From Bacteroidota bacterium (GTDB taxonomy: Bacteria; Bacteroidota; Bacteroidia; Bacteroidales; UBA12077): a stretch of 64,000 bases of DNA. Location: NCBI GenBank assembly GCA_034189025.1, contig JAXHVS010000055.1, forward strand, positions 18,278 through 82,277, read 5' to 3'. The notes beneath the pieces were generated by a model that made no database searches, was not told where the DNA came from, and worked only from the letters and a program-made list of their open reading frames with translations. A program made the translations under genes and the position numbers. Numbering within the stretch: position 1 is the first letter of the stretch; every line of letters starts with the position of its first letter. Below are positions 26,047-62,347 of the stretch, piece after piece.

Positions 26047-26163
26047 GAAATGATTTATAATCGTCATAGAGTTTTTATTTCATTCTAAAATAGGGTATGA
26101 AGATACAATTATAATTTTTTTAATTGAAATGGATGATGAAATTAATGTCTTTTCTGAAAGTAT

Positions 26164-34086: not shown

Positions 34087-35892
34087 ATGCCGAATTCGGG
34101 TATAAAAAAATTTTATAAAGAGAGAATTAACGATTTTCAAAAAAAAGAGTCCAGCATTAAACAAAAAATTTTATGGCTTGGATTACTCCGTTTTGTTTCT
34201 TTTCTTTTGTTTATTGTTGGAATCGTTTTTACCATAAAAGACTTTTCGTGTATTAGGTTAATTTTAACTCTTACCTGGCTTGTTTTATTTATTGGTTTTG
34301 TTGTACTTCATCTTGCTCAGAATCAGAAATTAAAGTTAGTACAGAGTTTTATCCAAATAAATAAGCAAGAGCTTAAAGCATTAAATTACGATTTTGCAGA
34401 ATTTAACGATGGAGAGGAATTTATTCATCGTGATCATCCCTATGCTTATGATTTGGATTTATTTGGTAAAGGTTCTCTTTTTCAATGTTTAAATCGGACA
34501 TTTACACAGGCAGGGAGAATCTTTTTAGCCGATAGGCTTTTAAATCCATTATTTAACAAACAAAAAATTGAATATACACAACAAGCCATTCAAGAGCTAT
34601 CCGAAAAAATTGATTGGCGTCAACATTTACAAGCTACCGGTAAGTTAGTAAACATTTCACCCGATGATAACCAAAAAATTAAATTATGGGTTAAAGCACC
34701 TGCCAATTTCATCAATAAATGGTATTATAAACTGATTGTTTGGGGCTTGCCATTATTAACTATCTCTTCATTATTCTTGTTAATTTTTGGGTGGTTACAT
34801 TATTCGGTATTTGTTTTTTTGGCTTTGTGCCAGTTGTTTTTTGCCAGCCTTATTATGCGGCGAACAAATAAAGAACAGCGAATAATATCTGAAGAAATAG
34901 GCATATTAAAAAATTACCACCAATTGATTCAAATCATTGAAAATTCTTTATTTCATAGTTTTGAGCTCAATCAGCTTAAAAAAGAATTTTATGTTAATAA
35001 TAAACAAACGGCGAGTATTATTTTAAAAAAATTAATACGCATTATTGATGCGTTTGATTCGCGTTTAAATATAATTGTAGGTTTAATATTAAATGCCACG
35101 TTAATGTGGGATTTGTTATCGTTAATGCGATTAGAAAAATGGAAAAAACAGTATGGAGGCAATATTTCGCTGTGGATTAAAAGTATTGCACAGTTAGATG
35201 CTTTTTGCAGTATGGCAAATTTTAGATTTAATTATCCGGATTATATTTTTCCTCAAGTTGTAAACCAACTTGTTATAGATGCTAAGGAAGTCGGGCACCC
35301 ACTAATTTTTCCCAATAAAAGAGTAAATAATGATTTTAGAATCGATAAACCAGGACAAATAAATATAATTACCGGAGCTAATATGGCAGGGAAAAGTACT
35401 TTCCTGAGAACTATTGGTGTTAATTTAATTCTGGCTATGAATGGCATGCCGGTTTGCGCAAAACAGTTTGATTTTAGGTTAATGCATCTTTATTCAGGAA
35501 TGCGTACATCTGATTCGTTAAAAGAAAACGAGTCCTATTTTTATGCCGAATTAAGAAGGTTAAAACAAATAATTGATGAATTAAAATCCGGAAAAGAGCT
35601 ATTTATCCTTTTGGATGAAATATTAAAAGGAACAAATTCTGTTGATAAGGCTAAAGGGGCGTGGAAATTTGTAGAACATTTAATTAAGCTTAATGCAACA
35701 GGTGTGATTGCTACTCACGATTTAACATTGTGTGAGTTGGAAAATCAATATTCCGCAAGAATAAAAAATCAATGTTTTGAAGTAGAAATTAGCAGACAAA
35801 AAATTTTCTTTGATTATAAATTACGTAATGGAATAACCAAAAATATGAATGCTTCGGTATTAATGAAACAGATGGGTATTTTCCCCTGTTAA
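34087..35892 (+). CDS. membrane-anchored MutS-family ATPase (MutS domain V only)
   Basis: 601 aa with four predicted TM helices (about aa 28-77 and 213-257). MutS ATPase motifs are present: Walker A GANMAGKST, then STF, DEILKGTN and THD. I recognise no mismatch-binding or Smr domain. Confidence 0.85.
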   Translation: MPNSGIKKFYKERINDFQKKESSIKQKILWLGLLRFVSFLLFIVGIVFTIKDFSCIRLILTLTWLVLFIGFVVLHLAQNQKLKLVQSFIQINKQELKALNYDFAEFNDGEEFIHRDHPYAYDLDLFGKGSLFQCLNRTFTQAGRIFLADRLLNPLFNKQKIEYTQQAIQELSEKIDWRQHLQATGKLVNISPDDNQKIKLWVKAPANFINKWYYKLIVWGLPLLTISSLFLLIFGWLHYSVFVFLALCQLFFASLIMRRTNKEQRIISEEIGILKNYHQLIQIIENSLFHSFELNQLKKEFYVNNKQTASIILKKLIRIIDAFDSRLNIIVGLILNATLMWDLLSLMRLEKWKKQYGGNISLWIKSIAQLDAFCSMANFRFNYPDYIFPQVVNQLVIDAKEVGHPLIFPNKRVNNDFRIDKPGQINIITGANMAGKSTFLRTIGVNLILAMNGMPVCAKQFDFRLMHLYSGMRTSDSLKENESYFYAELRRLKQIIDELKSGKELFILLDEILKGTNSVDKAKGAWKFVEHLIKLNATGVIATHDLTLCELENQYSARIKNQCFEVEISRQKIFFDYKLRNGITKNMNASVLMKQMGIFPC

Positions 35893-36046
35893 TAACTTTT
35901 CAACAACACGGTACTTCATAATATAATTGGTTTTTATTTATTTTGCATCATTTAACCATTTATTAACAGTTTACTACAGAAACTTGTTGATAAACAATTT
36001 TATCAGTGAATTTTCTTTTGGTTATATTTACGAAAATTTAGCAGAA

Positions 36047-37882
36047 ATGACGGCAAATTATACAGAAGATAGCATTCGTACGCTCGAGTGGAAGGAACAT
36101 ATCCGGAAACGTCCCGGAATGTATATTGGTAAATTAGGCGATGGCTCATCTCCTGATGATGGAATATATGTATTACTCAAAGAAGTAATGGATAACTCTG
36201 TCGATGAGTTTATGATGGGATTTGGGAAAACAATTGATATTGAAGTTACCGACAATAGTGTAAAAATTAGAGATTATGGCCGCGGAATACCTTTAGGAAA
36301 ATTATTGGATGTATCATCAAAAATGAATACCGGAGCCAAATACGATTCAAAAGTTTTTAAAAAATCTGTCGGATTAAACGGAGTAGGGATTAAAGCGGTA
36401 AATGCCCTTTCCGAAAATTTTCGTATCGAGGCTTATCGTGAAGGCGAAAGAAAACAGATTGAATTTGAAAAAGGAAATGTAGTTTTAGATGCTCAGGTTC
36501 AGCCAACAAAAGAGAAAAACGGCACCATGGTTTCTTTTGAACCCGATAAAGCCCTTTTTGGGAATTATCACTACATGAAAGAGTATGTAGAATCTATGGT
36601 GAGAAATTATGTTTATCTCAACTCCGGATTGGTGATTCGACTGAATGGCGAAAAGTTTTATTCTGAAAATGGATTGCGCGATTTATTGGAAGAGAATATG
36701 AGCTCCGATGGAATTTATCCGATTATTCATCTAAAAGAAGATGATATTGAAATTGCAATAACCCATGGGAATCAATATGGAGAAGAATATTACAGCTTTG
36801 TAAACGGCCAACATACTACACAAGGAGGAACACATTTAGCCGCTTTTCGTGAGGCCTATGTTAAAACTATTCGCGATTATTACCGAAAAGATTTTGAACC
36901 TTCTGATATACGAATGTCAATTGTTGCAGCTATTAGTCTTAAAGTAGAAGAACCGGTTTTCGAATCGCAAACAAAAACAAAACTCGGGTCAAAAAATATT
37001 TCTCCTAACGGAGTATCTATCCGTAATTTTATAAGCGATTTTTTAAAAAATGAGTTAGACAACTATCTGCACAGAAATCAAGAAATAGCAGATACCCTGT
37101 TAAAAAAAATTCACGAATCGGAGAAAGAACGAAAAGCTATTTCTGGTATTAAAAAATTGGCAAAACAACGAGCCAAAAAAGCCAGTTTACATAACCGCAA
37201 ACTTCGCGATTGCAGAGTTCATTATAACTCAAACGATGAGCGAAAAAACGATACCATGATTTTTATTACCGAGGGAGACTCCGCGAGTGGGTCTATTACT
37301 AAGTCGCGCGATGTAAATACACAAGCAGTTTTTAGCTTAAAAGGCAAGCCTTTAAACACCTATGGATTAACAAAAAAAATTGTTTACGAAAACGAAGAGT
37401 TTAATTTATTGCAAGCTGCCTTAAATATTGAAGAAGGGATTGAAAATTTACGATACAAAAGTGTTATTGTGGCTACCGATGCTGATGTTGACGGAATGCA
37501 TATCCGGTTGTTATTATTAACATTCTTTTTACAATTTTTCCCTGACCTGATTAAAAATGGCCATTTATTTATTCTTCAAACACCTTTATTTAGGGTAAGA
37601 AATAAAAAGGAAACATTTTACTGTTATAGCGAAGAAGAAAAAGACCAGGCTATTAAAAAATTAAAAAACAGCCCGGAAATAACCCGGTTTAAAGGGTTGG
37701 GAGAAATATCTCCCGATGAGTTTAAACATTTTATCGGAAAAGATATTCGACTCGATCCTGTAAGGCTTCGCCGCGAAGATGCCATAAATGAACTGCTGGA
37801 ATTTTATATGGGTAAAAATACACCCGAAAGACAGGATTTTATTGTTGATAATCTTAATATTGATGTAATAGAAGAACGATAA
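36047..37882 (+). CDS. parE: DNA topoisomerase IV subunit B
   Basis: GHKL ATPase ([17 protein letters not shown]-equivalent [12 protein letters not shown]) and Toprim ([13 protein letters not shown]). I moved the start to [10 protein letters not shown] (ATG 36047). It is adjacent to parC. Confidence 0.9.
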
Positions 37883-37936
37883 CCTGAATCGTAACAGATA
37901 GATGAAAAAAATATTTTAAATATTGAGGATACAGGA

Positions 37937-40567
37937 ATGAGTACTGAGAATAAAGATAACCTTGAACAATCTGAAAATAAAGAATTAGCAAAAGACACTA
38001 ATACAGAAGGAAAAGAAAAATCAGGAGATGAATTGCATAAAATTATGCAGTTGTCGGGAATGTATAAAGAATGGTTTCTTGATTATGCATCGTATGTAAT
38101 TTTAGAACGTGCTGTTCCTCATTTGCATGATGGATTAAAACCTGTTCAGCGCAGGATATTACATGCGATGAAAAAGCTTGATGACGGACGATACAATAAA
38201 GTAGCTAACATTATTGGTTATACCATGCAGTATCATCCTCATGGAGATGCTTCCATTGGGGATGCTTTAGTTCAATTAGGGCAAAAAGATATCCTTATTG
38301 ACACACAGGGTAACTGGGGAAACACCCTTACCGGCGATAGTGCAGCCGCTCCCAGATATATTGAAGCCCGGTTAACAAAATTCGCCCTGGATGTAGTTTT
38401 TAATCCTAAAACTACCGAATGGAAAAGATCATACGATGGGCGGAATGAAGAACCTGTTACTTTACCCATTAAGTTCCCGTTACTGTTGGCCCAGGGTGTA
38501 GAAGGTATTGCCGTTGGACTGGCCTCTAAAATTTTACCCCATAATTTTAATGAGTTAATCGATGCTTCGATTGCTTATCTCAAGGGAAAAGATTTTGAAT
38601 TGTTTCCCGATTTTCCAACTGGTGGAATAGCCGATTTTAGTAAATACAATGATGGATTACGGGGAGGTTCAATTAAAATCAGGGCTAAAATTGAGAAAGA
38701 AGACAAAAAAACATTAAAAATAACCGAACTTCCATTTGGAAAAACTACTCAAAGTTTAATCGATTCTATTCTTAAAGCCAACGAAAAAGGAAAAATTAAA
38801 ATACGTAAAATCGACGATAATACAGCCGAGCATGTAGAGATTTTAGTACATCTTCCGGGAGGAACATCACCAGATCAAACAATTGATGCATTGTACGCTT
38901 TTACCGATTGTGAAGTATCTATCTCTCCCAATGCATGTGTGATCAAAGATGCCAAACCATTATTTGTTGGGGTAACCGAAATGCTTAAAATCTCGACCGA
39001 TAGTACTGTTCAATTATTAAAGCGCGAGCTGGATATAAAAATGGCTGAGCTTAAGGAATCATGGCACATGTCGTCGCTCGAGAAAATATTTATCGAAAAT
39101 CGAATTTATCATGATATTGAGGAAAGTGAAACATGGGAGAATGTTATCGAAATGATTGATAAAGGATTGGAGCCTTTTAAAAAAATGTTGCTTCGAGAAG
39201 TTACTCACGATGATATCATTAAACTTACTGAAATTAAGATTAAACGTATTTCAAAATATGATTCTAAAAAATCCGATGAAATAATCAAAGGCATTGAGGA
39301 TGAAATGAAAGAAGTGCAGAATCATTTAGATAATATTATTGATTTTGCCATTAATTATTTTAAACAAATACGGAAAAAACATGGCGACGGGCGAGATCGA
39401 AAAACCGAAATACGAAATTTAGAATCAATAGAAGCTACCCAAGTGGTTGTTGCCAATCAAAAACTTTATGCCGATAGGCAAGAGGGCTTTATAGGAACAT
39501 CGTTGCGAAAAGATGAATATGTGTGCGATTGTTCTGATATTGATGAAATAATTGTTTTCCTCCGTGATGGAAGATATCTTATTACCAAAGTATCGGAAAA
39601 AACTTTTGTTGGGAAAGATATTATTCATATAGCTGTTTTTAAACGAAACGATACACGTACCATTTATAATGTAATTTATCGCGATGGGTTAAATGGTAAT
39701 ATCATGGTAAAACGATGTGCTATTAAAGGTATTACCCGCGATAAAGAGTATGATATTACCAAAGGGACAAAAGGCTCGAAAATATTATATATGACAGCCA
39801 ACCCAAACGGCGAAGCCGAGATTGTAAAAGTTTATCTGCGTCCAAGGCCAAGATTAAAAAAACCGGTTTTCGAATTTGATTTTAGCGAACTGGCCATTAA
39901 AGGCCGCCAATCGATGGGAAATATTCTTACCAAATATGCCGTGCATAAAATTGTTCTTAAAGATGAAGGAGTATCAACGCTTGGTGGCAGAAAAATTTGG
40001 TTTGAAGAAGAGGTGCTTCGTCTTAACGATGATGGCCGAGGAAAATATTTGGGTGAATTCCATAGCGATGATAAAATTTTGGTTATTACAAAATCAGGCA
40101 AATATAGATTGACGTCCTATGATTTAATGAATCATTTCGAGGACGATGTATTATTTGTAGAAAAATTTAGGCCTGAGAAAATCTTTTCGGCCGTTTATTA
40201 TGATGCTGACCTTGAATATTATTATGTTAAACGTTTTACAATAGAACCAACAGATAAGCTCACAAGCTTTATTGGAGACAATGAAGAGTCGCACTTAATA
40301 AAAATTACTGAAGTGGAATATCCCAGACTCGAGGTGTCTTTTGGCGGTAAACACAAAAATCGTGATAGTGAGATAATTGAAATAGCTGATTTTATTGGTG
40401 TAAAAAGCTATAAAGCACGAGGTAAACGGTTGTCGAATTACGAAGTTAAAGTTGTTAAAGAACTTGAGCCTTTAATTAAAAAAGAAGAAGTAAAATCGAA
40501 AGAATCTACTGATGATGATCAAGATGATACATCACAAATGAGTTTGTTTCAAAATGGTAAAGATTAA
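37937..40567 (+). CDS. parC: DNA topoisomerase IV subunit A
   Basis: 876 aa. DGLKPVQRRILHAM is ParC-type rather than the GyrA-type PVHRRV. It also has AAPRYIEARL and an acidic C-terminal tail. Confidence 0.9.
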   Translation: MSTENKDNLEQSENKELAKDTNTEGKEKSGDELHKIMQLSGMYKEWFLDYASYVILERAVPHLHDGLKPVQRRILHAMKKLDDGRYNKVANIIGYTMQYHPHGDASIGDALVQLGQKDILIDTQGNWGNTLTGDSAAAPRYIEARLTKFALDVVFNPKTTEWKRSYDGRNEEPVTLPIKFPLLLAQGVEGIAVGLASKILPHNFNELIDASIAYLKGKDFELFPDFPTGGIADFSKYNDGLRGGSIKIRAKIEKEDKKTLKITELPFGKTTQSLIDSILKANEKGKIKIRKIDDNTAEHVEILVHLPGGTSPDQTIDALYAFTDCEVSISPNACVIKDAKPLFVGVTEMLKISTDSTVQLLKRELDIKMAELKESWHMSSLEKIFIENRIYHDIEESETWENVIEMIDKGLEPFKKMLLREVTHDDIIKLTEIKIKRISKYDSKKSDEIIKGIEDEMKEVQNHLDNIIDFAINYFKQIRKKHGDGRDRKTEIRNLESIEATQVVVANQKLYADRQEGFIGTSLRKDEYVCDCSDIDEIIVFLRDGRYLITKVSEKTFVGKDIIHIAVFKRNDTRTIYNVIYRDGLNGNIMVKRCAIKGITRDKEYDITKGTKGSKILYMTANPNGEAEIVKVYLRPRPRLKKPVFEFDFSELAIKGRQSMGNILTKYAVHKIVLKDEGVSTLGGRKIWFEEEVLRLNDDGRGKYLGEFHSDDKILVITKSGKYRLTSYDLMNHFEDDVLFVEKFRPEKIFSAVYYDADLEYYYVKRFTIEPTDKLTSFIGDNEESHLIKITEVEYPRLEVSFGGKHKNRDSEIIEIADFIGVKSYKARGKRLSNYEVKVVKELEPLIKKEEVKSKESTDDDQDDTSQMSLFQNGKD

Positions 40568-45222: not shown

Positions 45223-46761
45223 TTAAAACTGGAAATAAATAAATGGCTGTATTTCTGCAGATTTTACCTGGAAAATAATAAAAATTACAATAAGTGTTAT
45301 CAATATTTTTATAGCTATGTGGCTTTTAATAAACCAACCGCGATAGCTCTCTTTGAACGATGAGGGCAACCAGTGTAAGAATAATCCCAGAAGGATGATC
45401 GCATATATTTTATAATAAGAAGTTACCATAATGGGAACCAGCGCTCCCTGGAAGTTTGTAATTATTTGCCTAATAATAGTCATGGCATCTTCCATATTTT
45501 GAGCTCTGAAAAATATCCAGGCAAAGGTTACAAGGTGGAAGGTGGTAAACACTGAGATAAAGCGATATAAAAGATTTTTGCTGGATTTAGTTTGATAGTA
45601 TTTACTTAGCGAAAGGTTCATTTTCATCCATAACTTATGAATAACCAATCCTAGCCCGTGCAAACCTCCCCAAATAATAAACCGCATGTTGGCTCCATGC
45701 CATAAACCACCAAGAAGCATGGTAATCATTATATTTATATAGGTTCTAACTTTTCCTTTACGGTTTCCTCCAAGCGGAATATATAAATAATCTCGCAACC
45801 ACGATGATAGAGATATATGCCATCGGTGCCAGAAATCGGTAATGTTTAATGCTTTATAGGGGGAATTGAAATTTACTGGCAACCGGAAACCTAATAATAA
45901 TGCTACTCCAATTGCTATGTCGGTGTATCCTGAGAAATCACAATAAATTTGAATAGAGTATCCATATACAGCCATTAAATTTTCGAATCCGGTAAACGAT
46001 CCTGGCGAATCAAAAACCCTGTCGACATAATTAATAGAAATGTAATCGGATATTAACATTTTTTTGAGTAATCCGCTTAGGATTAAAAAAATAGCATGGC
46101 CAAACTCTTGTTTTGTTAGTTTAAATTTTTGGTAAAGTTGAGGAATAAATTCTGCCGCACGAACAATAGGGCCCGCAACTAATTGCGGAAAGAAAGAGAC
46201 ATAAAATCCAAAATCAATAATATTTTTTACAGGCTTAACTTTTCTCCGATATACATCAACAGTATAGCTTATTGTTTGGAAGGTGTAAAATGAAATTCCC
46301 ACCGGTAATATTATAGATGAAATATTAAACGATGTGCCTGCTACTCTATTTGTCCATAATGCAAGATAATTAACAACCTGAAAATTGGTGTTGAAAATGG
46401 AATTGAGAATATCTGTAAAAAAATAAGTGTATTTAAAATACCCTAATACAAGTAAATTAATAAATATACTTGCCGATAAAAATAATTTTTTTCTGAGTCC
46501 GTTTTTTGCTTGATAAATTAGCTGTCCAAGGGTAAAATCAGCAATGGTAGAGAAAATAAGTAAGGTGAAGAAATATCCTCCGGATTTATAATAGAAGAAA
46601 AGGCTCATTACAAATAAATAAGCATTTCTGAGCACATTTTTTTTGTACAAAAAAGAATAAAATAGCAGTAATACACCAAAAAAAACCCAGAAGTATAATC
46701 GAGTAAACAAAAGAGGTTTCGATTCTGAATAGATGAATATGTCTTTTAATAACTCGGTCAA
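45223..46761 (-). CDS. MBOAT-family membrane O-acyltransferase (AlgI/PatA/DltB-like)
   Basis: 512-aa polytopic protein with FWHRWHISLSSWLRDYLYIPLGGNR and the invariant-His block GGLWHGAN. Confidence 0.92.
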   Translation of the reverse strand: MTELLKDIFIYSESKPLLFTRLYFWVFFGVLLLFYSFLYKKNVLRNAYLFVMSLFFYYKSGGYFFTLLIFSTIADFTLGQLIYQAKNGLRKKLFLSASIFINLLVLGYFKYTYFFTDILNSIFNTNFQVVNYLALWTNRVAGTSFNISSIILPVGISFYTFQTISYTVDVYRRKVKPVKNIIDFGFYVSFFPQLVAGPIVRAAEFIPQLYQKFKLTKQEFGHAIFLILSGLLKKMLISDYISINYVDRVFDSPGSFTGFENLMAVYGYSIQIYCDFSGYTDIAIGVALLLGFRLPVNFNSPYKALNITDFWHRWHISLSSWLRDYLYIPLGGNRKGKVRTYINIMITMLLGGLWHGANMRFIIWGGLHGLGLVIHKLWMKMNLSLSKYYQTKSSKNLLYRFISVFTTFHLVTFAWIFFRAQNMEDAMTIIRQIITNFQGALVPIMVTSYYKIYAIILLGLFLHWLPSSFKESYRGWFIKSHIAIKILITLIVIFIIFQVKSAEIQPFIYFQF

Positions 46762-46767
46762 AATTTT

Positions 46768-48009
46768 TTAATTTCTATGGTCAAAAAACTTTATAAAAGC
46801 GTTCACAAATAATTCTCCCTGCAATTGGTAACCTGCTCTTTTAAAATGTATTTTATCATTAGCGGTAAAATCGTAGTTATGCCATTTTAATACAGCATTT
46901 TTACCGCCCATAATTGAATAAAAATCCCAAAGTCCTGTATGTAACTCATCCTTAATTTGAAACAGGGTTTCTCTATACATCATAATGTTTTTATTTGAAA
47001 TATCATTTTTAATATGATCGCCAGGAACTGCCAAAATTATTGATGAATTAGGTGCTGAAACACGTATTTGGTTGATAAAATCTTTAAGAATGAGTTTATT
47101 TTCCAACGATGAAAAATTTTCATTAAATGTTTCGTTTGTACCCAACGAAATAATGGTCAAATCGGGATTTATTTCTTCAACTTGAGAGGGCAGCAATTCA
47201 CATTTAAGGTACGATTGTGCGGTAGCTCCATTTACACCAATGGTGTGATACCCTATTTTGTTTTGGTCATGTTCTAAAATTAGCCCATAAAGTTCAAAAG
47301 CATGCGCTGTGTCGGGATTAAAAATTTCGATATGTATTGAATCTGTTGCTTTTGCTAGATGGAATGTTGAATAATTATCTTTCATTTGTGTATAAAACCC
47401 ATTAATTTTTAGTGTAATTCCTGGTTTTATGGAGTGCAATATTTTTACTTTATTAAAATAATATTTTACCGGGAAATCATAGGTATTATTTAACATTTTT
47501 ACCGAAAAAGAAGCTGTTGAATCATGGGTAGCAACAGTAATGCCCGATAATCCCAATTTGTAACTTAAGGTGTCGTTGGTGTTTTTATTCATCTCCCAGT
47601 TTCCGGTATAATCTACCTTGTAATAATAAGGATTATTAGTGTTTGCCAAGGTGTAAGGAAATATAAATCCCGGCTCGGCGATTGTGTCTTTCGGTAAGTA
47701 GTGTTGAAACAGGTTCTGCCTGATTTTTTCGGTTAAAAAAGCTGCCTGTAGGTGAGAGTCGCCAATATGAAGGATGTTTATTTTTTTTGAGCCCTGAAGA
47801 TTTATATTTTGTAGTTTTTCTTTAAATTTTTCGATTTGCTGGTTATCACCTGAGAAATGCACAATATTTTTATCCTGCCGGATAAATTTTAGTGTATCAT
47901 ATATATTCTGAGAATATCCTGAAAAAGCTAATAAGAGTGCCAATAGTATATATTTAATTTTCTTCAAAATTATCTGATTTTTTGTTATGGATATATTCGA
48001 AATAATCAT
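46768..48009 (-). CDS. SGNH/GDSL-family hydrolase or acetyltransferase (secreted)
   Basis: SGNH blocks are present: I HIGDSH, III LGTNE, V DKIHF. The signal peptide KKIKYILLALLLAFSGYSQ suggests the real start may be the TTG at 47966. Confidence 0.85.
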   Translation of the reverse strand: MIISNISITKNQIILKKIKYILLALLLAFSGYSQNIYDTLKFIRQDKNIVHFSGDNQQIEKFKEKLQNINLQGSKKINILHIGDSHLQAAFLTEKIRQNLFQHYLPKDTIAEPGFIFPYTLANTNNPYYYKVDYTGNWEMNKNTNDTLSYKLGLSGITVATHDSTASFSVKMLNNTYDFPVKYYFNKVKILHSIKPGITLKINGFYTQMKDNYSTFHLAKATDSIHIEIFNPDTAHAFELYGLILEHDQNKIGYHTIGVNGATAQSYLKCELLPSQVEEINPDLTIISLGTNETFNENFSSLENKLILKDFINQIRVSAPNSSIILAVPGDHIKNDISNKNIMMYRETLFQIKDELHTGLWDFYSIMGGKNAVLKWHNYDFTANDKIHFKRAGYQLQGELFVNAFIKFFDHRN

Positions 48010-49507
48010 TTATAAATGCATCGTAAAACATTTTGGATATAACCACAGAGCCTTTCCAGGTAAAATGTGTAAAATCTTTTTTTGCAAGCGGAGGATTCGC
48101 ATTTACCCATGCAGGCATTGAATTTTTACCGCCCATGGCTTCGTACATATCCCAAAAGGCACAACCGGCTTTAAAAGCAGCATTTTTCTGCGCCTCCCTG
48201 ATTTTTTCAATGTTGGGGTACGATTCGTAACGGCCCATTACATTTCTCGACATATCTGAAACGCCAATAACAATAATGCTAATATCAGGGCGTAAGCCTT
48301 TCAATGTTTTTAATTGTTTGTAAAATTGTTTTTCATAGTAGCTGTAATCATCAATAATGTGAGGAACCAGATTAACACCAAACTGCATGATTATGAGCTT
48401 GGCATTTAATTTTTGGTACATCGAACGGAAAAAAGCCATGTCGGTTCGTGTAAAATCTGTACCACTACTTCCGCGCAGCGGAATGTTATCTACAGCTATT
48501 CCTTTATAATCGTCAATTGCCACAGCATAAATATCCGGACTATCTTCTCCTTTGAAACTTATTGTAATTTCATTTAATGACCCGTCAATATCCCATGATA
48601 AGGTTTGCAATTGGTGCGATGGAGGAATTAGCTCGGCATCGAGGGTTTGATCTTTATATTTTAATTCGGCAATAAAGGGTTTTTCATTAAATCCGTAAAA
48701 TACCCTACACCTTTTAAATTCACGGGTTCGAAGGTAAGTAATGTTTGATTTTTTAAGCATTATTTCGCCGGCATATAAATCTTTGGAGCGTGCGTAAACA
48801 GGTGCAAATCGGCCAAAACTCATTAAAGCACCTAGTCTTTTATGATAAATATTTCCGTTTTCAATACTTTTTATGGTATAACGCTCCCAATTTCCACTTA
48901 ACTTATGCTGTAGGGAGATATTGGTCCCTTTGATGAGTACCGGAGGAAATAAACCTACTCCCGATCCTCCGAATTGTTGCTGTAGCTCATTTCGTATGTA
49001 TGATGTAATCCGGTCGCCTTCGATTTGCGAATCACCATAATGTAAAACTCTTATTAGCTCGCCTGTATTTTTTAAATGACGAAGATGATTAAAAAATGGA
49101 TACAATACAGATTTGTCATTTTTCGGATATTCTAAATACTGATTAATGGAGCCAGGAGCTGTTGACTCCTTCTTTGGTAATGTTGAATCGGAAACAGAAA
49201 GTGTATCGGTTTTCGTTTCTGTTTGTATTGAACCAGGAATAGTGGAAATCGAATCTTTCTTGGCTACCAGGTTGTCTTTTGTTTGGGAGATACTGCTATC
49301 TGTTAGCAAACGAAGCTGTTGGGTATCTATTATATCTTGTATGGTTAATTGATTGGATTGTTGCTGTGAGATAAGATGATTAATATCCGGAAAACGTAAA
49401 AGTAAATTGTTTCCGAGATATAATCCTTCTTTGGGAAAGATGAATGAAACCACCGCCAATAATACAAATATACTGATTAAGTATAGTAAGATTTTATAAG
49501 GTTTCAT
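47954..49507 (-). CDS. SGNH/GDSL-family hydrolase or acetyltransferase with N-terminal membrane anchor
   Basis: 517 aa with a TM anchor and a Ser/Thr/Gln-rich linker. SGNH blocks are present: I HYGDSQ, III FGVN, V DFTHF. Confidence 0.85.
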   Translation of the reverse strand: MKPYKILLYLISIFVLLAVVSFIFPKEGLYLGNNLLLRFPDINHLISQQQSNQLTIQDIIDTQQLRLLTDSSISQTKDNLVAKKDSISTIPGSIQTETKTDTLSVSDSTLPKKESTAPGSINQYLEYPKNDKSVLYPFFNHLRHLKNTGELIRVLHYGDSQIEGDRITSYIRNELQQQFGGSGVGLFPPVLIKGTNISLQHKLSGNWERYTIKSIENGNIYHKRLGALMSFGRFAPVYARSKDLYAGEIMLKKSNITYLRTREFKRCRVFYGFNEKPFIAELKYKDQTLDAELIPPSHQLQTLSWDIDGSLNEITISFKGEDSPDIYAVAIDDYKGIAVDNIPLRGSSGTDFTRTDMAFFRSMYQKLNAKLIIMQFGVNLVPHIIDDYSYYEKQFYKQLKTLKGLRPDISIIVIGVSDMSRNVMGRYESYPNIEKIREAQKNAAFKAGCAFWDMYEAMGGKNSMPAWVNANPPLAKKDFTHFTWKGSVVISKMFYDAFINDYFEYIHNKKSDNFEEN

Positions 49508-49620: not shown

Positions 49621-52600
49621 TTAACCAAATAAACTTAATTGCCCGTGATTTTTATCCGTTTTTTTATAATCATTTTTTGTTTGTTCTGCAAGTTGCTTTT
49701 CGATAAGGTTAAGAAAAGGGCTTTTAGGGAGTTGCAATTCACGGCCCATAAGAAAACGTTTTTTGGCATACGTTAAATATAGCATTGCTTTTGCCCGGGT
49801 CATGCCCACATAAAGCAACCGTTTTTCCTCGTCGTTATCGGTTTTTTGTTCTTTAAAAAGCGAGTAGGGGATTAACTTGTTTTCGCATCCGGCTATAAAA
49901 ACACATTTAAACTCCAGTCCTTTTGCTGCATGAATGGTCATTAAACTTACCTTCTCAATTTCCGGTTGGTACAAATCTGCCGGCTGGCCTAATGTCATAT
50001 GTTTAATAAAACCCTCTGTATCATTCGTATATTTCGCAGCCAGGTGTTTAAGCCTGTCTAATATTTTGAAGTCTTCATCGGTTGTATTTATTATAAATTC
50101 TGTCCACAAAAAATGCAGATAATCATCTAATGGTAATTTTAAGGGTTGATTATGAATTTTATCTAGTGCTATTGGGTTGATATTGAGCTGGCTGGTAATT
50201 TTGTTCCGTAGAAACAAATTTTCCGGTTCACTGCTTAGTTTTAAAAGGTTTATCAGTACACGTGTGATGTTGTGTTTTAAAAATTCATCTTCATTAATCT
50301 TTTGATATGGAATGCTGTGGCTATTCAATGCTTTTTCAAGGGCTCCCATTTGCGCTTTGGTACGGCACAATATGGCAAAATCAGATAAACTCTCAATTTT
50401 GGTATTTTTTTCTCCGCTCGAAACATTACTATCCATAGAGAAAAAACGCAATCCGCCGGATAAATTTTCTATTTCGCGGGCAATAAATTCAGCTTCACTT
50501 TTATCGGTTGGGTGGGTTGATATCTTTATTTTTAAACCATCATCTAATCCCTGTAAAAAATTATTTTCCTTTAAAATATTACCCGAAGCTTTTAATATGT
50601 TATTTGTACATCGGTAGCTCAGGTTGAGTTTGTAAATTGCTGTTTTAGGGAAATCTTCAATAAACCGGCTGATGAATTTAGCGTTTGAACCGCGAAAACC
50701 ATATATGGCCTGATTAGGGTCGCCAATAACCGTAATATTATGGTTGTCAGTGTCAGATAATGTTTTAATGAGTTGATATTGTGCATCGTTAATATCCTGG
50801 TATTCATCAACCATAATCCATGGGAACCGTTGCTGTAATTTTTGCAGGAACATTTTGTCTTTACGGAAAATTAGCAGAGGCATATAAATCATATCGTCAA
50901 AATCGAACAGATGATTTTTTTGGAGTTCTGCCGAATATCTCTCAAACATGTTACGTATGGTATCATCTTTAATTTCATCAGAAAGGAGAACCTTTTGCTT
51001 AATTTCTGTAATCTCTTGTTTCCAATGTTTCATTTCTGTTTTTTTCTTCTCAGGGAACAGGTATTGTAGCATGAATAATTTATCCTCGTCGTCGATAATA
51101 TGGATGTTGGTTTGATTTTTTTCCCTGTAATAGTTTCTTAGTATTGAATATCCCAGAGCATGAAAAGTAGAAATGTGTATGTTTTCTATATTAAATGGTT
51201 GTCCCAGTAGTTTTTTTGTACGAGAAAGCATCTCTTCGGCTGCCTGATTAGTAAATGTTACGGCTAAAATATTTTCAGGGTTTACCTGTTTTTCCTTTAC
51301 CAGATAAGCAATTCGTCGGGTAAGTACATTGGTTTTTCCTGTGCCGGGTCCAGCCAATATCATGGCTCGTTCTTTGTCATGTTTTACTGCTTTAGCCTGT
51401 TCTGGGTTTAAGCCTTGTAATATACCTCTTTGTTCAACAATATACTGAGTTTCCGGTTCGGCTGCTATATCAGAAGGTTCGTTTATTGCCTTTAGTTTTT
51501 GGTATTGTTGCAAGTTGAAATTGAGCAGTTTACGTTGACGTATTTCGGGTAAATTTGATATTTCAAACAATGCCGATTTGTCTTCAAAAATTTTTGTTTC
51601 GTCGGGACGGAAAACTTTTACCTCACCATATTCTCCGTCAAAACCTTCTTTGATGATTATTTGATGGTTTCGCATTCTTCGGATAGCTTCACTTAGTACT
51701 TCTCCACCCATTTCATTGATTTCTTCAATGGATAAAAAATGTAAAATATTGAATTCTGAACCCGCTTTGACAATTAGCTGCTCGTACTGTTTTTTTATTT
51801 TTTTTGATTTTTCTCCAACTCCTTCTATTTCGGCTAAGATCTCCGGAAGGGGTATAATCGAGTAAAAAGGTTTCCGGTTGGGGCGCTCTTCAATATTCAC
51901 CCTGTCAGATAACTCTACAATACGGTTTACAACGCCTATCGTAACCTTTTTGCCACAAACAGGACAAATGCTATGATGTTTCATGGTTTCAACCGGATCC
52001 CAACAAACCTTACATTTCCGGTGTCCGTCGTAGTGGTATTTGCCTTCTTGCGGAAACATGTCAAAAGTTCCTAAAAAGCTTTCATTACCAGTTTTAAGGG
52101 CATCGGTTATCGAATAATAACTAACCTCTGTATCGAAAAGGTTGGCATTTCTGCCTAACTTTTCAGGTGAATGGGCATCGGAATTGGAAATTAACGTATA
52201 GCGATCGAGGAAACAACACATCCAGTTTAATGCTGGGTCGGTTGATAATCCGGTTTCCAACGCATATATATGTTCCGACAAGTCTTCAAAACATTCTTCA
52301 ATACTGTTAAAACCTGATTTTGACCCTAACGCCGAAAACCAGGGGGTCCAAATATGTGCCGGGATGAAAAAGATTTCATCTGAGATTTCCAGACACATTT
52401 CTAACAGGTGCTTTGCATCTAACCCAAGAATAGGGCGTCCGTCTGAGGTAATATTAAAATTCATATGGCTAAGCTTCTGCTGAATTTTATCCACTACCTC
52501 AAAATCAGGAGCCAGAATTACATTATGAATTTTGCGTATTTTCCCATTCTTTTTATAAATATTACTTATTTCGGCACTTAACAAAAAGCGTGGCGCATTG

Positions 52601-52842
52601 GTGTTAGTCTCCTGAGCCGGATTTTTGATTTTAAATTCATCTTTCAGTTTAAATAGGCCTGGTTCTGCCGGTTCAATTTTTTCTTTCAATTCGGCAGTCC
52701 ATCCCGGATGGGAAAAATCTCCCGTTCCTACAATTTTAATTCCTTTTAGCTTAGCCCAATAGTCGAGATGTTCGGGTGTTAGCTTTTTGCTCGTAGCCAT
52801 TGAAAAATGAGAGTGGATATGTAAATCGGCAATAAATTTCAT
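49621..52842 (-). CDS. Endonuclease-Q-like PHP nuclease fused to a UvrD/PcrA-type SF1 helicase
   Basis: One 1073-aa ORF. N-terminal FIADLHIHSHFS...IVGTGDFSHPGW and zinc knuckle CKVC-x12-CPVC. C-terminal helicase motifs are present: I GPGTGKT, Ia TFTNQAA, II DEYQD, III GDPNQAIYGFRG, VI VGMTRAK. Confidence 0.88.
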   Translation of the reverse strand: MKFIADLHIHSHFSMATSKKLTPEHLDYWAKLKGIKIVGTGDFSHPGWTAELKEKIEPAEPGLFKLKDEFKIKNPAQETNTNAPRFLLSAEISNIYKKNGKIRKIHNVILAPDFEVVDKIQQKLSHMNFNITSDGRPILGLDAKHLLEMCLEISDEIFFIPAHIWTPWFSALGSKSGFNSIEECFEDLSEHIYALETGLSTDPALNWMCCFLDRYTLISNSDAHSPEKLGRNANLFDTEVSYYSITDALKTGNESFLGTFDMFPQEGKYHYDGHRKCKVCWDPVETMKHHSICPVCGKKVTIGVVNRIVELSDRVNIEERPNRKPFYSIIPLPEILAEIEGVGEKSKKIKKQYEQLIVKAGSEFNILHFLSIEEINEMGGEVLSEAIRRMRNHQIIIKEGFDGEYGEVKVFRPDETKIFEDKSALFEISNLPEIRQRKLLNFNLQQYQKLKAINEPSDIAAEPETQYIVEQRGILQGLNPEQAKAVKHDKERAMILAGPGTGKTNVLTRRIAYLVKEKQVNPENILAVTFTNQAAEEMLSRTKKLLGQPFNIENIHISTFHALGYSILRNYYREKNQTNIHIIDDEDKLFMLQYLFPEKKKTEMKHWKQEITEIKQKVLLSDEIKDDTIRNMFERYSAELQKNHLFDFDDMIYMPLLIFRKDKMFLQKLQQRFPWIMVDEYQDINDAQYQLIKTLSDTDNHNITVIGDPNQAIYGFRGSNAKFISRFIEDFPKTAIYKLNLSYRCTNNILKASGNILKENNFLQGLDDGLKIKISTHPTDKSEAEFIAREIENLSGGLRFFSMDSNVSSGEKNTKIESLSDFAILCRTKAQMGALEKALNSHSIPYQKINEDEFLKHNITRVLINLLKLSSEPENLFLRNKITSQLNINPIALDKIHNQPLKLPLDDYLHFLWTEFIINTTDEDFKILDRLKHLAAKYTNDTEGFIKHMTLGQPADLYQPEIEKVSLMTIHAAKGLEFKCVFIAGCENKLIPYSLFKEQKTDNDEEKRLLYVGMTRAKAMLYLTYAKKRFLMGRELQLPKSPFLNLIEKQLAEQTKNDYKKTDKNHGQLSLFG

Positions 52843-59869: not shown

Positions 59870-62347
59870 TTAAACCGGATCCACATCAATGGATATTTGT
59901 ATTGTTTTGTGATTATCCATTGTAACCAGCTGAATGATTTGTTCATTCAACAATTTTTTTGCTTTTTGAAATGACCGTTGGCGTTCGATCTTGATCAATA
60001 TTTTTTTGATATACATATTTTGTATTTTTGAGATTACCGGAGATTCAGGGCCTAACACTCTTTTGCCAAAGATTTTTTTTAGGTTGTTGGCTAAATGGTT
60101 GGCGGATTGATCTACCACATTGGCTTTTTTGTGTTTAATGCTAATATAAATTAACCGGCAAAACGGTGGGTAGTTGAAATTTTTACGTTCAAGCAATTGT
60201 GATTTGTACATTTCCTGATATTTATTATCCAATACAAATTGTAAAATCTGATGTTCCGGATGACTGGTCTGGATAATCACTTTGCCTTGTTTGTTTTTTC
60301 GTCCTGCCCGTCCGCTTACCTGGGCCATTAATTGATAGCTGCGCTCAAAAGCCCTGAAATCAGGATAGTTGAGCATGTTGTCGGCATTCAGAATTCCTAC
60401 CAGTGCTACATTATCAAAATCAAGGCCTTTGGAAACCATTTGCGTGCCTATTAAAATATTAATTTCTCCCTGCTCAAATCCGGCAATAATATTTTCGTAA
60501 GCATATTTAGATCTTGTAGAGTCTAAATCCATACGTTTAACTTTGGCATCTGGGAAAAAAATTTTTATCTCATCCTCAATTTTTTCGGTTCCAAAGCCTC
60601 GTGTCGATAATGAGGCATTTCCACAGGCTTTACATACTTTAGGGTTTTTGATAGTGTATCCACAGTAGTGACAAACCAGCTCATTATGCTGCTTATGGTA
60701 AGTCATGCTTACATCGCAATGGGTGCAATAGGGAATCCATCCACAAGTTTCGCATTCTAAAAATGGGGCAAACCCACGCCTGTTTTGAAAAAGGATAATT
60801 TGTTCGTTCTTTTCGAGCGATTTTTTAATACTATCTAATAATACCGGGCTAAAATGCGATTTCATCTGTTTCTTTTTTCTTGCTTTAAGCGTATCGCTTA
60901 AAATAATTTCGGGCAACTTTATTTCTTGAAATCTTGAATTTAGCTCAACTAGTCCATATTTATCTGTTTTTGCATTAAAATAACTTTCAATAGATGGGGT
61001 TGCTGTTCCAAGCAGCACTTTGGCCTGGTGGATTTGAGCCAGAACAATAGCAGTATCGCGGGCATTGTAGCGTGGTGCCGGATCGTATTGTTTGTAAGTA
61101 TTTTCATGCTCTTCATCAATAATAATTAATCCCAGGTTCGAAAAGGGTAAAAAAAGTGACGAACGGACACCAAGAATAATGTCATAATGGTTTTTTTTAG
61201 TGTTTTTCAGAACATTCTGATAAACTTCAACCCGCTCTCCATCGTTAAATTTAGAGTGATAGATTCCAACCCTGTTCCCAAATACCGATTTTAAACGGTT
61301 AATGATTTGTGCGGTTAAAGCAATTTCTGGCAACAGATATAAAACCTGTTTCCCTTGATCAATTTGTTCTTGCATCAATTGAATGTAAATTTCAGTTTTA
61401 CCACTTGATGTTACACCATGCAGTAACACCACCTGTTTTTCATCAAAATGTTTTTGTATGGATTGATATGCTTGCTCCTGAGCTATAGAGAGCTGCTTAC
61501 CCTCTTTGACATTTGTTGATGAATAGTCGAGCCGGCTAACCGTTTTTTTATACTCGGTTAAAATATTTTTTTTAATTAATGATTGAATGTTTTGATGATT
61601 TGCTCCCGTTTTTTTGATTAAACTTTGCCTGCTGACTTCAGCAGTGGCCTTCTTTGAAAATTTCCCCGACAGGTTTATAAAACTTATAAGCACATCAAGT
61701 TGTCTGTGGGCTTTCTTTAACGAATCAAACGCTTCGTTTAGTTGTTTTTCGGTGGTAATCGATTCGTGGAGCTCAATATAGGTTTCAGTCCTGGGTTTGT
61801 AACTTTCTTTTAACTTTTCTTCCAGAATTACAGCTTTCTTATCTATTAGAGATTTAATTATCGGTAAAGCATCTTTTTTATTCAGGGCTTGAGCAATGTC
61901 ATTTACTTTGGCAATGTTTGTTCTTTCTAAAAAATCGAGAACTAATGATTCGGTACTGGTAAATATTTCATTTTTAATGTTTTTTGCATTGTAAATAACT
62001 TTTGTTTCCGATTCAAGTTTTAATCCCGAAGGTAGTGCTGCTTTAAATACCTCACCCAGCGAACACATGTAATAATCGGCAATCCATTGCCATAATTTTA
62101 ATTGTGATTCGTTTACAATTGGATTATCATCTAATACCGATAAAATATCTTTTGTTTCGTAATCTGCAGGCTTTTTGCAATGAATGGCAAGAATGATTGC
62201 TGCATAAATTTTACGCCGTCCAAATTGAACAATTACCCTTTTGCCTGTTGTTACTGATTTTTCCAAAGGTTTGGGAATACTGTAAGTGAACAGTTGCTTT
62301 AAAGGGAGCGGCAGTATTACATCGACAAATACGGGTGAATTGCTCAT
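59870..62347 (-). CDS. priA: primosomal replication-restart helicase PriA
   Basis: 825 aa with an N-terminal 3'-DNA-binding domain (VDVILPLPL), Walker A GVTSSGKTE, DEEH, and cysteine-rich zinc fingers CETCG..CTHC..CHYCG..CKACG. Confidence 0.95.
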   Translation of the reverse strand: MSNSPVFVDVILPLPLKQLFTYSIPKPLEKSVTTGKRVIVQFGRRKIYAAIILAIHCKKPADYETKDILSVLDDNPIVNESQLKLWQWIADYYMCSLGEVFKAALPSGLKLESETKVIYNAKNIKNEIFTSTESLVLDFLERTNIAKVNDIAQALNKKDALPIIKSLIDKKAVILEEKLKESYKPRTETYIELHESITTEKQLNEAFDSLKKAHRQLDVLISFINLSGKFSKKATAEVSRQSLIKKTGANHQNIQSLIKKNILTEYKKTVSRLDYSSTNVKEGKQLSIAQEQAYQSIQKHFDEKQVVLLHGVTSSGKTEIYIQLMQEQIDQGKQVLYLLPEIALTAQIINRLKSVFGNRVGIYHSKFNDGERVEVYQNVLKNTKKNHYDIILGVRSSLFLPFSNLGLIIIDEEHENTYKQYDPAPRYNARDTAIVLAQIHQAKVLLGTATPSIESYFNAKTDKYGLVELNSRFQEIKLPEIILSDTLKARKKKQMKSHFSPVLLDSIKKSLEKNEQIILFQNRRGFAPFLECETCGWIPYCTHCDVSMTYHKQHNELVCHYCGYTIKNPKVCKACGNASLSTRGFGTEKIEDEIKIFFPDAKVKRMDLDSTRSKYAYENIIAGFEQGEINILIGTQMVSKGLDFDNVALVGILNADNMLNYPDFRAFERSYQLMAQVSGRAGRKNKQGKVIIQTSHPEHQILQFVLDNKYQEMYKSQLLERKNFNYPPFCRLIYISIKHKKANVVDQSANHLANNLKKIFGKRVLGPESPVISKIQNMYIKKILIKIERQRSFQKAKKLLNEQIIQLVTMDNHKTIQISIDVDPV

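Follow-up and report, generated by a model that had tools for sequence, protein, structure and literature searches.

A chromosomal Endonuclease Q-helicase fusion with clamp-type motifs: a candidate nick-and-unwind repair enzyme found across bacterial phyla

Introduction

In mismatch repair the MutL endonuclease is paired with UvrD or PcrA, and in nucleotide excision repair UvrC is paired with UvrD; in these systems a clamp-activated or lesion-directed nick is followed by unwinding. Endonuclease Q (EndoQ) cuts immediately 5' of deoxyuridine (dU), deoxyinosine (dI), deoxyxanthosine (dX) and abasic (AP) sites and leaves 3'-OH and 5'-phosphate products (PMC4357722). The PCNA-interacting protein (PIP) box of archaeal EndoQ is needed for PCNA binding (KD 55 nM) and for PCNA-stimulated cleavage, and ring-shaped PCNA stimulates cleavage ∼6-7-fold in the Pyrococcus furiosus pair (PMC4858679). 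In the EndoQ literature the bacterial enzyme is said to be confined to a small number of groups (PMC4357722, PMC6202378); the Bacillus pumilus enzyme, as cited in PMC6202378, is active on dU, dI, and AP sites, and β-clamp consensus motifs have been noted at the C-termini of bacterial stand-alone homologues (PMC4858679). That consensus is Q-phi-x-L-F, or QL[S/D]LF, with QLSLF being the motif of Bacillus subtilis PolC (PMC4549789; bioRxiv 10.64898/2026.05.27.728225). Here, we describe a gene from a 64,000-nucleotide stretch of a Bacteroidota bacterium of the Bacteroidales lineage UBA12077 (the window; contig JAXHVS010000055.1, positions 18,278 to 82,277, assembly GCA_034189025.1), in which an EndoQ and a UvrD-type helicase are joined in one polypeptide.

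Judged from its sequence, the protein consists of EndoQ, an internal clamp-binding-like motif (CBM1), a linker, a superfamily 1A (SF1A) helicase, a Lys-rich spacer, and a C-terminal clamp-binding motif (CBM2). The analyses described below establish the domain identities, show that the catalytic machinery of each half is intact and that clamp-type motifs are conserved, and reveal a chromosomal housekeeping character. With modest confidence, we propose that the fusion is a chromosomal enzyme, tethered to the β-clamp, that repairs deaminated and abasic DNA by a "nick-and-unwind" route.

Results

The N-terminal Endonuclease Q module

Residues 1-466 of the fusion were compared with all PDB sequences using phmmer (E ≤ 1). 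The matches were the EndoQ entries (5ZB8, 7K30-33) and two spurious methyltransferase hits at E ∼0.007, with no non-EndoQ PHP protein among them. The P. furiosus enzyme (PfuEndoQ; 5ZB8/7K30) matched with E 2.9e-54, pairing query residues 5-414 with residues 5-384 of the 400-residue crystallised construct at 33% identity over ∼410 residues. The NCBIfam EndoQ model TIGR00375 was matched over positions 2-374 of 374 with a score of 163.8 bits (E 7.2e-48). The Pfam PHP family (PF02811) gave no match at E ≤ 0.1, the Pfam PHP_C family gave a weak match of 17.1 bits that lies under its cut-off, and homologues of the fusion carry the precomputed Pfam family PF27218 MJ0043_C. An AlphaFold2 model of the fusion, built from a 61-sequence alignment, had a mean predicted local distance difference test (pLDDT) score of 80.8. 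Superposition on the P. furiosus structure, which had been suggested as a check of the module's identity, gave target-normalised template modelling (TM) scores of 0.87-0.89 against 5ZB8/7K30, with ∼3 Å root-mean-square deviation over ∼420 columns spanning all three domains. A generic PHP phosphoesterase, such as a PolX-type PHP domain or a histidinol phosphatase, is ruled out by the lack of a PF02811 match and by PDB matches that are those of EndoQ. By sequence and model, the N-terminal module is thus a genuine EndoQ, as the sequence-only reading had proposed.

That reading had also pointed to a PHP-type metal site, and the claim holds at the level of individual residues. The metal ligands of PfuEndoQ are H8, H10, E76, H84, H139, and D193, and R114 and H195 are essential; the lesion pocket is formed by T142, E167, L168, G169, L170, S171, and N191, with W144 as the wedge and S14 as a further residue (PMC5961232, PMC8307549). 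All six ligands are identical in the fusion, as are 16 of the 17 functionally defined residues overall. The sole difference is L168, replaced by Thr, which in PfuEndoQ supplies main-chain atoms only (PMC5961232). Conservation was assessed in sets of 118-119 family members and in 147 diverse representatives of 50%-identity clusters. The metal ligands are invariant in 117-118 of 118 members and in 144-147 of the 147 representatives, and the pocket and wedge residues are invariant in the 118 members and nearly so in the diverse set. Relative to PfuEndoQ, the PHP domain carries an insertion of about 15+7 residues.

The CKVC-x12-CPVC zinc knuckle described earlier is present, and its ligand set required revision. 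The Zn ligands are most likely H274, C277, C293, and C296, which are family-invariant and place a His where PfuEndoQ has one of its Cys residues. The second Cys of CKVC, C280, is found in 45% of the 118 members and 35% of the 147 diverse representatives.

Some relatives vary at or near the active site. His takes the place of the Trp wedge (residue 168, codon at 52339..52341; Pfu W144) in 20 of the 147 diverse representatives of the fusion, and in 12 of them N220 (Pfu N191) is His, Ser, or Asp; such variants may mark sub-clades with changed lesion handling. The 1451-aa homologue P0095 has a ∼356-aa insertion at residues ∼203-558 that contains a LAGLIDADG homing-endonuclease domain (PF14528). 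The insertion starts with a Cys directly after ETGLS and ends ...CGN|S, at a point equivalent to residues 200/201 of the fusion (∼52240..52245), and by sequence it looks like an intein within the EndoQ active-site motif. Large insertions were also seen in P0148, P0256, and P0259.

The helicase module

The Pfam families UvrD-helicase (E 2.8e-74) and UvrD_C (E 2.1e-41) match the C-terminal module, and helicase motifs Q, I, Ia, II, III, IV, V, and VI are all intact and invariant in 118 members, which agrees with the intact SF1A helicase seen in the sequence-only reading. The PcrA structure 1pjr was matched with E 6.6e-73, and structures of PcrA, UvrD, UvrD1, and Rep with E 1e-73 to 1e-60, at 25-29% identity to UvrD/PcrA/Rep. 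In the model, the 1A/1B/2A/2B fold is present and superposes on the closed, DNA-bound forms of UvrD/PcrA with TM scores of 0.73-0.77. Among curated models the helicase is closest to PcrA, Rep, and UvrD (364, 345, and 318 bits); together with a fourth score of 295 bits, these PcrA/UvrD/Rep equivalog scores are about one-third of the cut-offs.

Several features set the module apart from these relatives. The 2B region is 61 residues shorter than that of PcrA (query 879-960, 82 aa, opposite PcrA 412-554, 143 aa) and poorly conserved, and a GIG motif was not found in it. In PcrA and UvrD, a C-terminal Tudor-like domain provides the link to RNA polymerase. Because only 19 residues follow the PcrA-aligned core, this domain is judged absent from the fusion helicase. 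In 2A, a family-specific loop inserts ∼20 residues that have no counterpart in PcrA/UvrD; G796, G797, S802, D804, and S805 are invariant among closer relatives, the loop is modelled as disordered (pLDDT <50 at 799-810), and a strict regular expression finds a GGxxxFSxDS-like motif in 54 of 128 diverse representatives. It might serve as a further short linear motif, the third in the protein, or as a contact between the modules. The short 2B domain without GIG, the missing RNA-polymerase-binding domain, the family-specific loop, and the sub-cut-off scores together suggest that the helicase is a specialised paralogue of PcrA/UvrD/Rep.

Clamp-binding motifs, linker, and tail

The fusion protein ends ...KNHGQLSLFG, and the QLSLF of CBM2 is identical to the consensus β-clamp-binding pentapeptide. 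Within the last 9 residues, Q[LMIV]xLF occurs in 99 of 119 members and QxxLF in 114, whereas the rest of these proteins, 127,153 positions in all, contain Q[LMIV]xLF once. Of 100 complete diverse cluster representatives, 92 carry CBM2, and most of the misses place the motif a few residues further in. The fusion is the only one of 67 window open reading frames (ORFs) of ≥100 aa with a tail of this type. The tail is disordered in the model (pLDDT <50 at 1059-1073).

CBM1 lies ∼10 residues beyond the EndoQ helical domain, where the stand-alone EndoQ of archaea has its C-terminal PIP box. F426 is found in 118 of 118 members, L425 in 108, and Q422 in 78, in a linker that is otherwise variable (conservation 0.19 at residues 451-475; pLDDT <50 at 456-470). 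In diverse representatives CBM1 is often canonical, as in GQLSLF, GQTSLF, and GQLSMF. A linker motif, RKLINFDLxEYRxL, was considered as a family feature and rejected, as it is confined to closer relatives and occurs in 7 of 128 diverse representatives. The putative clamp-binding motifs were not part of the sequence-only reading and are new here; the fusion protein probably binds the clamp (DnaN).

Integrity of the open reading frame

The fusion was first read as a single ORF with no stop codon or frameshift between its two parts, and this is upheld: the 1073 codons run without interruption, and every motif quoted in that reading is present in the order and spacing given (Table 1). M1 is invariant in the 61-sequence alignment, and the window has a GC content of ∼33-36% throughout with no composition break at the fusion gene. 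Four independent Bacteroidales/Bacteroidota metagenome-assembled genomes (MAGs; L001-L004) encode full-length orthologues of 1071-1073 aa with 75-89% identity and the same architecture, and more than 115 further full-length homologues of 1054-1114 aa were found. A contig scan with the fusion protein as single query returned close Bacteroidales relatives only. A scan for sigma-70 promoters and terminators gave no enrichment over shuffled sequences, the promoter type being the wrong one for Bacteroidota.

One shorter protein, P0006 (696 aa), is 100% identical to part of the fusion protein and comes from a gene call truncated by a contig end. Its contig (L094, Logan SRR24907504_8269) is an independent assembly of the same organism and differs from the window by 3 single-nucleotide polymorphisms over 8.1 kb. 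At the contig terminus (L094:1-23, window ∼51740..51765), 18 of 23 nucleotides are mismatched; this divergence falls in the EndoQ helical domain (∼aa 366-373) and brings in a stop. It is most likely a contig-end or graph-branch artefact, and less probably a strain variant or rearrangement.

Distribution of the fusion

The EndoQ module (residues 1-438) was searched with HMMER against 1.84 billion cluster representatives. Relatives numbered 3,670 at E ≤ 1e-3 and 1,035 at E ≤ 1e-30, and the best 150 all had E ≤ 1e-134. Fused proteins (950-1300 aa) account for at least 127 of the 149 top-scoring 50%-identity cluster representatives, and nearly all of the shorter ones hold a Walker A or helicase Q motif, which marks them as truncated fusions. 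No stand-alone form was found among the best EndoQ-module matches, of which P0150 (393 aa) and P0243 (686 aa) are too fragmentary to be assigned to either form.

A survey of Bacteroidota had been suggested as a check. Run across the cluster representatives, it reaches beyond that phylum to at least eight phyla by source names, with 48-66% identity across phyla. Carriers include Bacteroidota, Armatimonadota, Cloacimonadota, Omnitrophota, Elusimicrobiota, Planctomycetota (Sedimentisphaerales), Chitinivibrionales, and Bacillota. The Bacillota carrier is the cultured Neomoorella glycerini, whose protein WP_156272870.1 is annotated as 'ATP-dependent DNA helicase Rep'; other database names of fused proteins are 'UvrD-helicase domain-containing protein' and 'TIGR00375 family'. 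The archaeal enzyme is the nearer relative of the EndoQ module (33% identity, 197 bits); a Bacillales-type stand-alone EndoQ is more distant (28%, 114 bits). By these sequence comparisons, the fusion is a large multi-phylum bacterial family and no rarity of one genome.

Selection and genomic context

Against three orthologues, the ratio of nonsynonymous to synonymous substitution rates (dN/dS) was 0.04-0.07 for the EndoQ module and 0.09-0.16 for the helicase, which indicates that both modules are under purifying selection and that the nuclease is the more constrained.

The EndoQ module had no match in 50,697 phage records and one in 72,556 plasmids. The plasmid match, on a 733-kb non-mobilizable Brevibacillus replicon, is a stand-alone 'endonuclease Q family protein' beside a NUDIX hydrolase. 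Among the best 80 IMG/VR loci none matched the EndoQ module; all cover the helicase half alone and, apart from two partial fragments, have ≤30% identity to it. PADLOC returned generic GajB/UvrD matches to the helicase half of up to 287 bits, under the PcrA score, and no match to the EndoQ module. No GajA-like or other defence gene was found near the fusion gene in the window.

The immediate neighbours of the fusion gene encode two SGNH hydrolases, an MBOAT acyltransferase, an ABC exporter, a small secreted protein, an SLT/LysM transglycosylase, a DUF5683 protein, ParB, and ParA. The wider window encodes PriA, ParE/ParC, a MutS2-like protein, RecJ, MreB/C/D, PBP2, RodA, LysRS, LipA/B, PFK, and further core functions; none of the repair and replication genes listed in Table 1 adjoins the fusion gene. 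Across four loci, from Bacteroidota, Armatimonadota, Omnitrophota, and Elusimicrobiota, the neighbours differ and no conserved operon partner was found.

Some neighbouring genes are recorded as side observations. The MutS2-like protein has MutS III and V domains only. The two tandem SGNH/GDSL-like proteins (517 and 413 aa, with a 56-nt overlap) and the MBOAT acyltransferase directly downstream resemble a polysaccharide or peptidoglycan O-acetylation cassette, and the same trio follows the fusion gene in L094. In one of the four distant loci, that of Armatimonadota, a DNA_alkylation repair protein (PF08713; L009:6737-7456) lies ∼550 bp upstream of the fusion on the same strand.

Table 1. Features of the fusion gene and of the surrounding window. 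Positions are those of the window; residues are those of the fusion protein.
Feature	Residues	Position	Strand	Basis or remark
EndoQ-helicase fusion gene, ATG to TAA	1-1073	49621..52842	-	ORF list; both ends read
Stop codon TAA		49621..49623	-	direct sequence read
EndoQ PHP catalytic domain	∼1-254	52081..52842	-	residue map to PfuEndoQ
PHP metal ligands	H8, H10, E91, H106, H163, D222; also R136, H224
Lesion pocket and wedge	T166, W168, E196, T197, G198, L199, S200, N220
EndoQ motifs	DLHIHSHFS 6-14; GTGDFSHPGW 39-48; SNSDAHSP 219-226; CKVC-x12-CPVC 277-296
EndoQ Zn-binding domain	∼255-303	51934..52080	-	gapless alignment to Pfu C249/C252/C268/C271
EndoQ C-terminal helical domain	∼304-414	51601..51933	-	aligned to Pfu 384; model helices 304-391
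CBM1 (clamp-binding-like), KSALF	422-426	51565..51579	-	family consensus Q-[ED]-S-L-F
Inter-module linker, contains RKLLNFNLQQYQKL	427-473	51424..51564	-	variable, partly disordered
SF1A (UvrD/PcrA/Rep-type) helicase core	474-1054	49681..51423	-	Pfam, PDB matches, motifs, model
Walker A / motif I, AGPGTGKT	497-504	51331..51354	-	invariant 118/118, except T501 115/118
Helicase motifs	GPGTGKT 498-504; TFTNQAA 529-535; DEYQD 679-683; GDPNQAIYGFRG 707-718; VGMTRAK 1012-1018
Family-specific 2A insertion loop, GGLRFFSMDS...SLSD	796-821	50380..50457	-	gaps opposite PcrA
Shortened all-helical 2B domain	∼853-951	49990..50286	-	model helices; conservation 0.35-0.43
Lys-rich flexible spacer	1055-1067	49642..49680	-	variable; K+R ∼30% of 20 aa before CBM2 family-wide
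CBM2 (C-terminal clamp-binding), QLSLF	1068-1072	49627..49641	-	direct sequence read
Two SGNH/GDSL-like proteins, MBOAT acyltransferase		45223..49507	-	directly downstream of fusion
RecJ		21439..23169	+
MutS2-like protein		34087..35892	+
Topoisomerase IV ParE/ParC		35927..40567	+
PriA		59870..62347	-
Large ORFs (273-726 aa)		6983..9163 (-), 10440..11780 (+), 23166..25256 (-), 25246..26067 (-), 30757..32409 (+)		no Pfam match at E ≤ 1e-6

Discussion

Proposed function

Lesion-specific nicking by the fusion is highly probable, and helicase activity is to be expected with the same confidence. That incision is coupled in cis to unwinding, as we infer, is an evenly balanced proposition. The proposed pathway would begin when the clamp motif or motifs attach the fusion to a DnaN ring already loaded on DNA, much as archaeal EndoQ is bound to PCNA through its PIP box. 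The EndoQ module would then flip out dU, dI, dX, or an AP site and cut immediately 5' of the lesion, leaving a 3'-OH and a 5'-phosphate end that bears the lesion. The attached 3'→5' helicase would load at the nick, most productively on the undamaged strand, and would peel off the lesion-bearing 5' end, freeing the nuclease from its product. The displaced strand could be removed by a 5' exonuclease or flap nuclease, either RecJ, which is encoded in the window, or Pol I; a clamp-bound polymerase would fill from the 3'-OH and ligase would seal the nick.

Several points weigh against this proposal. The strand on which the helicase would load is a pure inference. A helicase is not strictly required after an EndoQ nick, as nick translation by Pol I could remove the lesion. 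The relative orientation of the modules is undefined in the model (predicted TM score 0.58), and CBM1 is degenerate (KSALF, with no Gln) in this protein and its closest relatives. The TIGR00375 score lies under the curated cut-off of 326.6 bits, and the PcrA/UvrD/Rep scores of ∼295-364 bits lie under NCBI curated cut-offs of 911-1168. By these scores the fusion is a divergent subfamily of both EndoQ and PcrA/UvrD/Rep, and the divergence from TIGR00375 explains why NCBI names it only a 'UvrD-helicase domain-containing protein'. Lastly, stand-alone EndoQs work without a fused helicase (PMC4357722).

Alternative explanations

This last point also bears on the alternative that survives best, which we consider unlikely. 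The helicase might be a general UvrD/PcrA-type housekeeping enzyme, engaged in nucleotide excision repair, mismatch repair, or fork clearing, to which an EndoQ has been appended, so that the two share a clamp tether and act on independent substrates. PcrA, Rep, and UvrD are indeed its nearest curated models, and no second UvrD-type gene was seen within the 64-kb window. However, the helicase reaches only about one-third of the equivalog cut-offs, has no RNA-polymerase-binding domain, carries a family-specific invariant loop, and has a 2B domain ∼60 residues shorter and without GIG. In addition, the two parts have stayed joined in at least eight phyla, and the nuclease is under the stronger constraint.

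A distinctly less probable alternative is defence against phage or other foreign DNA, in which the fusion would destroy uracil-containing, deaminated, or modified invading DNA or counter injected DNA-deaminase toxins. Nuclease-UvrD combinations recur in defence, the helicase part matches many PADLOC GajB models, and a role against U-DNA phage has been suggested for Bacillus EndoQ, as summarised in PMC8307549. Yet the PADLOC matches reflect a generic helicase core that scores higher against PcrA, and they leave the EndoQ module unmatched. The neighbourhoods are of housekeeping type, are not conserved, and hold no GajA-like or other defence gene nearby, and the collections searched contain no copy of the fusion in phages, viral contigs, or mobile plasmids. 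Cross-phylum identity of 48-66% together with low dN/dS is atypical of fast-evolving defence genes, and the clamp-binding motifs suggest a tie to the replisome and repair machinery of the host. The preference for repair over defence that was first expressed on the basis of the neighbourhood is strengthened by these observations.

Replication-coupled surveillance carries a similarly low probability. Here the fusion would ride clamps at or behind the fork and remove dUMP or dIMP from nascent DNA, or process lesion-stalled forks. The two clamp-binding motifs and the AT-rich genome (∼33% GC) fit such a role, as does the ability of EndoQ to cut both ssDNA and dsDNA and its link to PCNA and polymerases in archaea (PMC4357722, PMC4858679, PMC6202378), but a cut in the ssDNA template at a fork would be dangerous, and surveillance of this kind is a sub-case of nick-and-unwind repair and not a true alternative to it. 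An artefact in which two neighbouring genes were joined by assembly or sequencing error, whether as a split gene or a chimera, is ruled out for practical purposes, as its one support, the 696-aa gene call in another assembly, is a contig-end truncation, and the uninterrupted architecture, with conserved start and tail, recurs in the four independent MAGs and in over 115 further assemblies.

Implications

A broader form of the nick-and-unwind proposal is tentative and, in our estimate, falls somewhat short of an even chance. The helicase-fused, doubly clamp-tethered form would be the predominant bacterial EndoQ. It would amount to an alternative-excision pathway complete in itself, at work in many phyla that are mostly anaerobic or uncultured, and could partly replace Ung- or EndoV-initiated repair. 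Such a pathway would lead from a lesion-specific 5' nick through in-cis unwinding to clamp-directed resynthesis, and by "Rosetta-stone" logic a UvrD/PcrA-type helicase would become the candidate for the missing partner that acts after stand-alone EndoQ.

Both parent families are well known, and the fused proteins are already in public databases under uninformative names. In a search of the open-access full-text literature, no description of the fusion, of its clamp motifs, or of how widely it occurs came up, and a description elsewhere is possible. The family changes the picture of where EndoQ lives and indicates that the clamp-docking element of the archaeal enzyme has been retained in the fusion clade and duplicated in most members. 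It also exposes an annotation blind spot, in that the fused proteins score too low for TIGR00375 and carry only names of UvrD-like helicases. The long-open question of which steps follow the EndoQ nick becomes directly testable, with helicase-driven strand removal on a sliding clamp as the prediction, and the fusion offers a single-polypeptide system in which to study the hand-over of a lesion-specific nick to a motor.

Comparison with known systems

The closest described relatives of the nuclease half are the EndoQs of P. furiosus and Thermococcus kodakarensis (5ZB8, 7K30-33), with which it shares the PHP, Zn, and helical domains and a clamp-interaction motif beyond the helical domain. Relative to P. 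furiosus EndoQ, the metal ligands, the R114/H195 equivalents, and the Trp wedge are identical, as is the pocket except for L168→T. The archaeal enzymes differ in being stand-alone proteins of ∼400-424 aa that end in a PCNA PIP box, whereas the EndoQ core of the fusion leads into a clamp-type motif of the bacterial kind, then into the linker and the 580-aa helicase, with another clamp motif at the end. The His-for-Cys Zn ligand and the PHP insertion are further differences.

The bacterial stand-alone EndoQs (B. pumilus and B. subtilis YqxK type; Brevibacillus WP_031414379.1) belong to the same EndoQ family; they have no helicase and are farther from the fusion than the archaeal enzyme is. The stand-alone EndoQ gene of Brevibacillus laterosporus (L013:5423-7170, NZ_CP011075.1) follows a NUDIX hydrolase gene with a 3-nt gap, and its product ends ...GKVMEEKGE, without a clamp-binding motif. 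The clamp motif is therefore not universal among bacterial stand-alone EndoQs.

UvrD, PcrA, and Rep (2IS6, 3PJR, 1UAA) share all helicase motifs and the 1A/1B/2A/2B fold with the fusion, which adds the N-terminal nuclease, the 2A loop, and the C-terminal clamp motif and has a short 2B and no Tudor-like domain. AddA, RecB, AdnB, and GajB of Gabija likewise combine an SF1 UvrD-like motor with a nuclease function. Their similarity to the fusion is much weaker, their nuclease is a C-terminal PD-(D/E)XK domain or a separate OLD-family protein, and they act on DNA ends or foreign DNA; no partner genes accompany the fusion at its locus. In function, the fusion would be a single-protein counterpart of MutL/UvrD, and likewise of UvrC/UvrD, aimed at deaminated or abasic bases; in both of these pairs a nick is followed by UvrD-type unwinding of the nicked strand. 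In those systems the components are separate polypeptides with unrelated nucleases, whereas the nuclease of the fusion is predicted to be lesion-specific and is covalently joined to its helicase.

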